Source: Amoebidium appalachense (Eukaryota > Protista > Ichthyosporea). Taken from it: 64,000 nt of DNA. Below, one piece after another: positions 51,101 through 55,805 of the stretch. The position numbers and the translations under genes are program-made. Within the stretch, counting starts at the first letter, position 1; each line of letters begins with the position of its first letter. The notes below the pieces were generated by a model. It worked only from the letters and a program-made list of their open reading frames with translations. It did no database searches and had not been told where the DNA came from. The stretch lies in assembly GCA_963693365.1 (NCBI GenBank), contig CAVNZM010000015.1:2790001-2854000 (forward strand). The letters run 5' to 3'.

Positions 51101-54100
51101 TGTATATAAACATGCGCACGGGTATGTTGCGAGTGAGCTCAGAAATGCACATGTTAAAACAATCGAAAGTCACACAAACTACATAGAAAGCGACCGCTCA
51201 GACATGTACATTGCACAGCGCACACGAACGCACACACGAATATGCAGGGTTGCTTGTTGCATGGTGTTATTGTGTCATGGCTTTTAAGGGGATTTTCTCG
51301 CGGGCCGGGCTCAATGGGCCTTTCAATTCACGCAGGTTAGCATTACGCCAATGATATCGCATAAAACTATTCCGGTCTGACCCGACCCGGAAACTTATGG
51401 GAACCCTCTTAATAGAAATTAAATTATGGAATAACACCAGCAGATAAAGAAAAATGGAAGTCTGATCGGAGATGGTGGGTGCAGGATCGACCTTTCGACG
51501 GTGCAAAGGGCCTTTTCGTCTCTGGCTCTCAACCTTACCATCATGTACATCACCACCCAAGGTAAAGATCTTGGTCAATGTTAAAGATCCCCGGTATGCC
51601 TTGCGAGCCGACTAATTGTATGAATTATATCTGGACTGAATTGCCGGCTTGTGCGTATGCAACATAACGCAGTGTAGGAAACCCCCTTTTAAAAACTTGG
51701 ACACGGCACACACACACGTGCACACACACACACACACACACACACACACACACACACACACACACACACACACACACACACACACACACACACACACACA
51801 CACACACACACACACTCACTCACTCACACAACCCCCCTTCCGTTTCCATCCCCCCCCCCCCCCCCCCCCCCCCCCCCATCCCCACTTCCACTTGCTGACC
51901 GTCCCCTCCTTCCATTTCCTTTCCATTTCCTTCTCTTCCTTCCATCTCCCCTAACTTCACATCTTCTCCCTTCCCGTATCCTCGCATCTTATCTTTCTTT
52001 CCCTCCCCTCCCTCCGCCCCCCTCTCCTCCCCCCATGACACACACACAGGCAAAGGAACAGAACCCACGCTTGGGGGAGCACACGAAGAATACATCAACA
52101 CTCTCTTCCAACTTGCAAGGAGGGGCCTGCAACCAGAGGCAGCCCTATTGGCTCGTCTGCTCCCTGCTCTCTTGGATGCATACTACCCCACACAGATGGC
52201 TCTAACAGCAGTCATGGGGGAGTACCTGGGGGGCACACAGGTGGGGTGTGTGTGTGTACGTGTGTTTTTATTTGTTTGTTTGTTTGTTTTTGTTTTTATG
52301 GGATGTGGAAGGACACGGGGGAAGGGTGGGTTGGTGGGTTGGTGGGGGGGGGGGGGGGGGGGGGGGGGGGGGGGGGGTGACTGCCTGCCCCGTTGGATGC
52401 ATACCACCCCCACACAGATGGCTCTAACAGCAGTCATGGGGGAGTACCTGGGGGGCACACAGGTGGTGTGTGTGTGTGTGTGTGTGTGTGTGTGTGTGTG
52501 TGTGTGGGTGGGTGGGTGGGTGGGTGGGTGGGTGGGTGGGTGGGTGGGCGGGTGGGTGTTTTATTTGTTTGTTTGTTTTTTTGTTTTGGGGGGGAACCCT
52601 CGGGGGGGGGGGGGGGGGGGGGGGGGGGGGGGGAGGGAGGGCGTGTGTGGGTATGTGTGAATGCCTGCGCTGTTGGATGTATACCACCCCCACACAGATG
52701 GTTCTAACAGCAGTTCTGGGGGAGTACCTGGGTGGCACATAGGTAGAGTGTGTGTGTTTTGTTTTGTTTTTTTTTTTTTGGGGGGGGGGGGAGGGGGAGG
52801 GGGGGGGGGGGGGGGTTGTGTGTTTGTTTGTTTGTTTGTTCTCTTAGAAAGAGGGGGGGTGGGGGGGTGGTTGGGTGGATAGGTGATTGGGTTTGTATGT
52901 ACGTGTGGTGTGTCCGAATTTTCACACACATAAACACGTACCCACTCTCACAAACGTACACACACACACACACACACACACACACACACACACACACTAC
53001 ACGCACTACACACCTCCCCACGCACACGCACACGTACACACGTACACGAACACACACACACCCCTCCACACACACACACACACACACACACACTAACTCA
53101 CTCACACACACACACTCACTCACTCACTCACTCACTCACTCATTCACTCACTCACTCACTCACTCACTCACTCACTCACTCACTCACTCACTCACTCACT
53201 CACTCAATCACCCCTCCACACACACACACACACACATACACACACACATACACACACACACACACACACACACACACACACACACACACACACACACACA
53301 CACACACAGGTCAGCGCGCAGTTCCTCACGCTAGTAGTTATGCGCATGTTCAAGCGCCTCTGCTGGGCTGGTCAGGGGGACCAGGTCCGCAATATGGTGC
53401 TACTCTCACTCAACTCATTCACTCAGAAATATGAGGTGGGTCAGAAAAAATCTCCTCCCCCCCCCCCCCCTCCCCCCCCGCCCTGCCCCCCCCCCCCCCC
53501 CCCCCCCCCCCACACACACACACACACACACTCACACAGATTCACATGCGCGCAAAACATAGACATGCTCGTGAGGACGCACGCAGAAAGTATACACAGC
53601 GCAGGCACAAGCATACACACTAACACCACGGGCACGTGCGCACATACGCAAAGACACCGTGCGATGTTTCTCTACCCTATCAAGCTACTTCTTCGTGCAA
53701 TTCAATCAGTCAGGGCAAACTGCTCGGCTAAACCATTTTTGTGTTGCTTCTCTGTTCAACCCGCTTCTCCCCCCCGTTGTTTCTGTCTTTTTTGGTCTTG
53801 TTTGTTTTTGTTTTTTTTTTGTTTTGATTCATTCATGTGTGTGGATATGATATGAGTCGTGTGAAGTGCCTATGAGCCCATTCATCAAATTTGCTGACGT
53901 GGAGCCATTTACAGGAGCCGGTTTCCCTCGTCATCATGACGTCACTGTTTGTGGCTGTCTCTTCCAACAAGTGGATCCGCGCACTGTATCCTACATTGCC
54001 CCCCCCCCCCCCCCCCCCCCCCCCCTCCAAATAAAAAAAGAAAAAAAGAAAAAAAAGAAAACCAAAAAAAAAAAAAAAAAAAAAGCCACATTCACGCTCA

Positions 54101-55805: not shown

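Follow-up and report, generated by a model that had tools for sequence, protein, structure and literature searches.

A U12-type intron at the site of human HTT intron 66 in a likely ichthyosporean huntingtin gene suggests that minor splicing was kept in a unicellular relative of animals

The huntingtin gene of a likely unicellular holozoan carries an intron with U12-type splice signals, which raises the question of whether this is the same intron as the minor intron of human HTT and whether its host still removes it by minor splicing. Great age alone would be unsurprising, since minor introns are already known to be older than animals; the lineage is the useful part. The last eukaryotic ancestor already had a minor spliceosome (PMC9887622), and minor introns common to different kingdoms are well described (PMC10639083). 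Among unicellular relatives of animals, Tables S4 and S7 of PMC11347168 give 0 minor introns for Capsaspora, 1 for Salpingoeca and 1 for Sphaeroforma, the latter among ~45,000 introns of Sphaeroforma arctica. The same survey reports a U6atac match as the only minor snRNA match in Capsaspora and Sphaeroforma, just 59 nt long in S. arctica, and no minor snRNA in Salpingoeca. In the Sphaeroforma row of its Table S8, orthologs of human minor introns never scored 'minor', and the orthologous introns that are left have converted to major or major-like. The values for S. arctica therefore indicate that loss of minor splicing has happened within ichthyosporeans. The apparent loss in Sphaeroforma, Capsaspora and Salpingoeca leaves a gap between fungi and animals in the reconstruction of ancestral minor introns. 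Sphaeroforma, Capsaspora, Monosiga and Salpingoeca appear in the supplement of PMC10639083; Creolimax, Amoebidium and Ichthyophonus do not. Among the papers listed by our searches, which covered neither subscription journals nor online databases, none connects U12-type or minor introns with intron 66 of huntingtin, with Ichthyosporea or Holozoa, or with Sphaeroforma or Capsaspora. Nothing relevant was present in the available parts of PMC11039992, PMC5560861, PMC11244446, PMC11286789, PMC8280824, PMC9887622, PMC9762945 and PMC5224493, or in those of the supplements of PMC9120149.

The window, that is the whole stretch of 64,000 nucleotides that was analysed, contains part of a gene on its plus strand whose model was guided by tblastn with a protein of Ichthyophonus hoferi from EukProt (P0002), a few internal splice sites being chosen among alternatives. 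The features around the intron are as follows.

519..55805, plus strand: huntingtin gene, its 5' part beyond the window; hand-built model of 62 exons that encodes 2,539 aa with no internal stop
53915..53985, plus strand: upstream huntingtin exon, 71 nt, whose last two bases begin the Leu codon of WIRAL
53986..54469, plus strand: U12-type GT-AG intron, phase 2, 484 nt, removed in an X1 contig; number 60 of the 61 introns modelled
53986..53994, plus strand: 5' splice site GTATCCTAC, read from the sequence; matches RTATCCTT at 7 of 8 positions
54096..54307, plus strand: intron stretch with an X1 contig of its own (276 nt, 212 letters without mismatch), possible unspliced RNA
54451..54459, plus strand: U12-type branch site TTCCTTGAC, 9/9 match to TTCCTTRAY, predicted branch A at 54458
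54467..54469, plus strand: 3' splice site CAG; the branch A lies 11 nt away and the bases separating them hold no U-rich tract
54470..54560, plus strand: downstream huntingtin exon, 91 nt, from tblastn with P0002, the X1 contig and the gene model
54561..55691, plus strand: last intron, U2-type, phase 0; a loose end of the X1 contig matches 55692 onward
55692..55805, plus strand: last coding exon with stop codon, from the X1 contig loose end and the gene model

To establish whether the intron is real, we used contigs from one sample. None of the sequencing runs containing this DNA is recorded as RNA; X1 and X2 were treated as such since introns are missing from their contigs. Letters 1701–1773 of a 2,424-nt X1 contig correspond to 53913–53985 and letters 1774–1864 to 54470–54560, with zero mismatches or gaps, joining 53985 directly to 54470. 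This confirmed that 53986–54469 is a real intron, removed at exactly the ends first reported. The contig runs from 53310–53433 through 53913–53985 and 54470–54560 to a loose end matching 55692 onward; both adjoining introns are likewise spliced out, and the RNA check of the gene model covers these last three introns only. A 12-letter loose end of an X2 contig before 54470 was not counted, only its last 7 letters matching the upstream exon and the whole having no exact match in the window. No X3 contig was placed on the examined intron region. The X1 contig inside the U12-type intron has a depth of 15.8, where the spliced contig has 87.3. The intron stretch that it covers is single-copy within the window, CA-type repeats excepted. 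The contig is compatible with some unspliced RNA, an amount that one-sample contigs cannot quantify. The examined stretches of the neighbouring introns have no X1 contig, unlike the U12-type intron, although missing contig cover proves nothing. Slower splicing of this intron is not claimed, contig gaps being uninformative and the sample single.

We assigned the intron to its class by consensus matching, together with a matrix of the gene's own donors. The donor GTATCCTA matches RTATCCTT exactly from +1 to +7 and has A at +8, where the consensus has T. At the 3' end, TTTTTTCCTTGAC is followed by seven bases and then by the CAG that ends at 54469. The first-pass annotation had put the branch site about 10 nt before the AG; the predicted branch A lies 11 nt from the last intron base, inside the 11–13 nt optimum of PMC3584512. 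The intervening bases include a short C run, a kind of run found everywhere in this genome. Of 61 modelled introns, this one is alone in having a GTATCCT donor and alone in having a 9/9 match to TTCCTTRAY in its last 40 nt, the runner-up reaching 7/9. The earlier remark that no other examined intron has both signals thus extends to the whole modelled gene. In a leave-one-out matrix built from the gene's own donors, the U12-type donor ranks second-lowest of 61, and it is therefore a poor major-type site. On the plus strand of the window, GTATCCT starts 2 of 3,461 GTs, and the branch motif lies 14–25 nt upstream of 1 of 2,365 AGs, the intron's own. Neither motif alone exceeds chance in 64 kb: GTATCCT is observed 2 times against 4.2 expected, and the branch site plus YAG once against 0.32 expected, a count reached in 24 of 100 shuffles. 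Both at the two ends of one spliced intron have a chance of ~1e-5 over 61 introns, by hand arithmetic from the intron and plus-strand counts, and the pairing is beyond chance.

Other introns of the gene have features of their own. Intron 41, at 36213, starts GTATCCAT in the gene model, a GTATCC donor with a branch match of 6/9; judged from its sequence, this may be a major-type donor that is weak, or the intron may be a minor one that has converted. Poly-C follows many donors in the modelled gene. The acceptor architecture of its introns is unusual for the major spliceosome, 17 of 61 ending in ACACAG, often after long CA runs and without a pyrimidine tract.

HTT and mouse Htt are both listed as minor-intron genes in the supplements of PMC6717393. 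The human minor intron recorded there, chr4:3238979-3239845, follows an exon-side GAT, begins GTATCCTCT and has the branch site TTTTCCTTAACT. Table S6 of PMC11347168 scores the same intron as minor and as responsive in 4 of 9 minor-spliceosome inhibition sets. From the supplements of PMC1636649, human exon 66 is 161 nt and exon 67 is 211 nt long; the exon lengths total 3,144 codons, which by arithmetic puts intron 66 in phase 2 of codon 3074. The 70 residues after this codon place it at the Ile of WVAAI, and the exon-side GAT fits a phase-2 Ile. From the GAT, the phase and the 161-nt exon, we infer that chr4:3238979-3239845 is HTT intron 66. The first-pass annotation's description of the human intron, a GTATCCT start and an interruption of WVAAI in phase 2, is borne out by these three sources, as is the intron's minor status.

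The intron in the window splits the Leu of WIRAL in phase 2, the fifth residue from the W as in human, and the alignment of the two proteins, counted by eye, is free of gaps from FTQ (-30) to DFY (+25–27). We hold that it interrupts the same codon in the same phase as human HTT intron 66, which is U12-type. The first-pass annotation had equated its position with that of the last human intron: the aligned site is indeed the same, but here the intron is second-to-last, 54561–55691 coming after it. Its further claim, that the intron was kept since before animals, is supported provided that the host is an ichthyosporean, a placement made by protein similarity alone. Compared by eye with human introns 62–66, the window gene matches only intron 66 exactly and intron 63 possibly; it is without human intron 65. 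The phase-0 intron at 54561–55691 lies three codons after DFY and is missing from vertebrates. The last intron of Ciona is apparently at this site (exon lengths in PMC1636649, alignment by eye), and 54561–55691 is likely another ancient intron of huntingtin, one that vertebrates have lost.

We further characterized the gene via its relatives. The exon at 52052–52240 matches human HTT structures (E 1e-5) and Pfam Htt_C-HEAT, and the gene matches both Htt_C-HEAT and Htt_N-HEAT. By these sequence matches the host gene is identified as huntingtin. Among 50%-cluster representatives, exon 52052–52240 had four matches, of which P0002 was the sole huntingtin; P0001, P0003 and P0004 were dropped as repeat proteins. 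Across 2,366 columns, the model is 41% identical to P0002; for two huntingtins from planthoppers the figure is 24%. With blastp it scores 1,141 bits to Ichthyophonus and 161 and 104 for the best insect pieces, and the 45 residues before the U12-type intron have 27 identities to Ichthyophonus and 15 to an insect. This best-hit similarity, in a comparison of three full-length homologs, suggests that the host is likely an ichthyosporean related to, and distinct from, Ichthyophonus. The three were recovered from 4,022 candidates; other ichthyosporean, filasterean or choanoflagellate huntingtins were not found by the protein searches (0/2,398, 3/4,022 and 0/1,791 candidates). A metagenome search for related loci confirmed 0 of 239 candidates, and the protein and metagenome searches recovered no non-animal HTT locus besides this gene. 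The two exons flanking the U12-type intron, searched alone, had no PDB match, both being too short.

The window contains several repeated structures. A ~450-nt unit occurs three times at 99.6–100% identity within one intron (14191–15513). Degenerate tandem copies of exon 3' ends plus GT donors, 79–99% identical, lie at 49084–50039 and 52381–52757, in the introns after exons 48793–48938 and 52050–52240; alternative donors, local duplications and assembly errors are all conceivable explanations. Beyond the huntingtin gene, 58461–59384 and ~63064–63990 are two tandem intronless genes, 93% identical, whose product is a secreted-looking protein of 307 aa with Cys-rich modules and poly-Pro linkers between them, without a Pfam match. 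The second copy is apparently frameshifted near 63820.

To get a broader picture of the intron in animals, we scanned 39 of 64 parts of a metagenome collection with a pattern that combined a degenerate W-x-R/S-A-L with GTATCCT. At least 118 loci fitted the pattern; 17 of them are huntingtin, with 12 distinct upstream peptides, and 101 were dropped as not huntingtin. All 17 are nearer to insect than to ichthyosporean HTT. Since the pattern required the donor, these loci cannot tell how often it has been lost. An AG lies exactly 161 nt upstream of the donor in 17 of 17 loci, a spacing that the pattern did not demand and that equals the length of human exon 66; the acceptor position of human intron 65 is thus common to all 17. 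The next exon falls within the fetched DNA in 8 of the 17 and is joined in phase 2; in these, the branch site matches at 9/9 (2 loci), 8/9 (3), 7/9 (1) and 6/9 (2). Three animal-like loci (L011, L013 and L029) have a branch site that has drifted, with an ACTTAAC core and 6–7 of 9 positions, and an intact donor GTATCCTT. Two RefSeq huntingtin isoforms of the planthopper Nilaparvata lugens, P0005 (isoform X2) and P0007 (isoform X1), both end WLRALYPSQGCYC, where the Laodelphax protein continues. They end a few residues past WLRALYP, in which YP is the read-through of a GTATCC donor, as in the window. Judged from their sequences, both are probably truncated models that read into an unrecognised U12-type intron, and automated annotation can miss the HTT U12 intron. 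Because the 17 animal-like loci and the Nilaparvata ends fit the same site, the intron is old within animals and not a vertebrate gain.

Taken together, these results are very probably best explained by an ancient U12-type intron at the human HTT intron 66 site that is removed by the host's minor spliceosome. The first-pass annotation had proposed a working minor spliceosome, and we infer the same from the sequence signals. It is likely, with somewhat more reserve, that the host keeps a complete minor spliceosome plus a set of U12-type introns shared with humans. Rfam gave 0 matches on the 64-kb window and hence no minor snRNA there, a result that says nothing on the rest of the genome. According to PMC3584512, the U11/U12 di-snRNP recognises U12-type signals, in which the branch site lies close to the acceptor and a pyrimidine tract is lacking. 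In the window intron, the U11 snRNP would pair with GTATCCT and U12 snRNA with TTCCTTGAC, leaving A54458 bulged; U6atac/U4atac with U5 would carry out catalysis, and the nearby CAG would serve as acceptor without a pyrimidine tract. Retention of the intron would add 15 codons before a stop at 54032 and would remove the C-terminal end of huntingtin. Slow minor splicing could conceivably limit huntingtin output.

An independent origin of the intron at the same site, or U12-like motifs arising by chance, would draw on the large independent intron gain in ichthyophonids (PMC5560861), on the expectation of either motif alone in 64 kb and on the single exact agreement, with intron 63 possible, among human introns 62–66 compared by eye. 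Against this, the joint motif chance on one of 61 introns is the ~1e-5 calculated by hand above, and the intron must also land on the single minor-intron site among 9,432 human HTT coding bases; we regard coincidence as exceedingly improbable. A host that is not an ichthyosporean, such as a divergent animal or a more distant protist, would leave the intron real and U12-type and would change what it says on age and lineage. The comparison covers three full-length homologs, none of them filasterean, choanoflagellate or amoebozoan, which gives this reading some room. However, the higher blastp score with Ichthyophonus (1,141 bits) than with the best insect pieces (161 and 104), the 27 against 15 identities in the 45 residues before the intron, and the absence here of human intron 65, whose acceptor position the 17 animal-like loci have in common, make such a host highly improbable.

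The intron could instead be ancestral and the minor spliceosome recently lost. In that case GTATCC would serve the major spliceosome as a weak donor, and the U12 signals would persist as an undecayed relic. Such loss is reported for Sphaeroforma, Capsaspora and Salpingoeca, and C. elegans splices minor-scored introns while minor snRNAs were not found in it (PMC11347168). In the model of the present gene, intron 41 also begins GTATCC and lacks a U12 branch site; the major spliceosome apparently accepts this donor. Yet both signals of the intron at 53986–54469 are intact, with a 9/9 branch site at 11 nt amid otherwise repeat-filled introns, its donor is one of the poorest in the gene by U2 standards, and the orthologous introns that remain in Sphaeroforma have converted to major or major-like. 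These conversions suggest that U12 signals as good as those seen here would be expected to decay after loss of the minor spliceosome, and we consider a recent loss unlikely.

Retained minor splicing of an ancient intron, the reading we prefer, makes the HTT U12 intron likely the first sign of minor splicing kept in a unicellular holozoan: one intact intron shared with humans predicts that the minor spliceosome is retained in an ichthyosporean. If true, the host would be the first unicellular holozoan reported with a complete minor spliceosome and human-shared U12-type introns in the literature searched, and the losses in Sphaeroforma, Capsaspora and choanoflagellates would be separate events. 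The huntingtin minor intron would then date to the holozoan ancestor, placing a splicing feature of the Huntington's disease gene before animals, and a single-celled animal relative would be available for studying minor splicing.

Compared with the minor intron of human HTT and mouse Htt, the window intron is of the same GT-AG U12 subtype, with a GTATCCT donor and a TTCCTTRAC branch site, and interrupts the same codon, likewise in phase 2, within the C-terminal HEAT region. The two differ in length (484 nt in the window, 867 nt in human), in donor position +8 (A in the window, C in human, T in mouse), in rank (second-to-last here, last in human) and in the upstream exon (71 nt against 161 nt). 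For the window intron, dependence on the minor spliceosome is a prediction. The U12-type introns that humans share with plants or early-branching fungi (PMC10639083) are likewise deeply conserved in position, but the host of the window intron is likely a unicellular holozoan, and the members of that group that have been surveyed have 0–1 minor introns. Sphaeroforma arctica, Capsaspora owczarzaki and Salpingoeca rosetta are also unicellular relatives of animals that have intron positions in common with human minor introns. In Tables S4, S7 and S8 of PMC11347168, the introns at those positions score as major or major-like and a full set of minor snRNAs is lacking, whereas the U12 signals of the window intron are intact.
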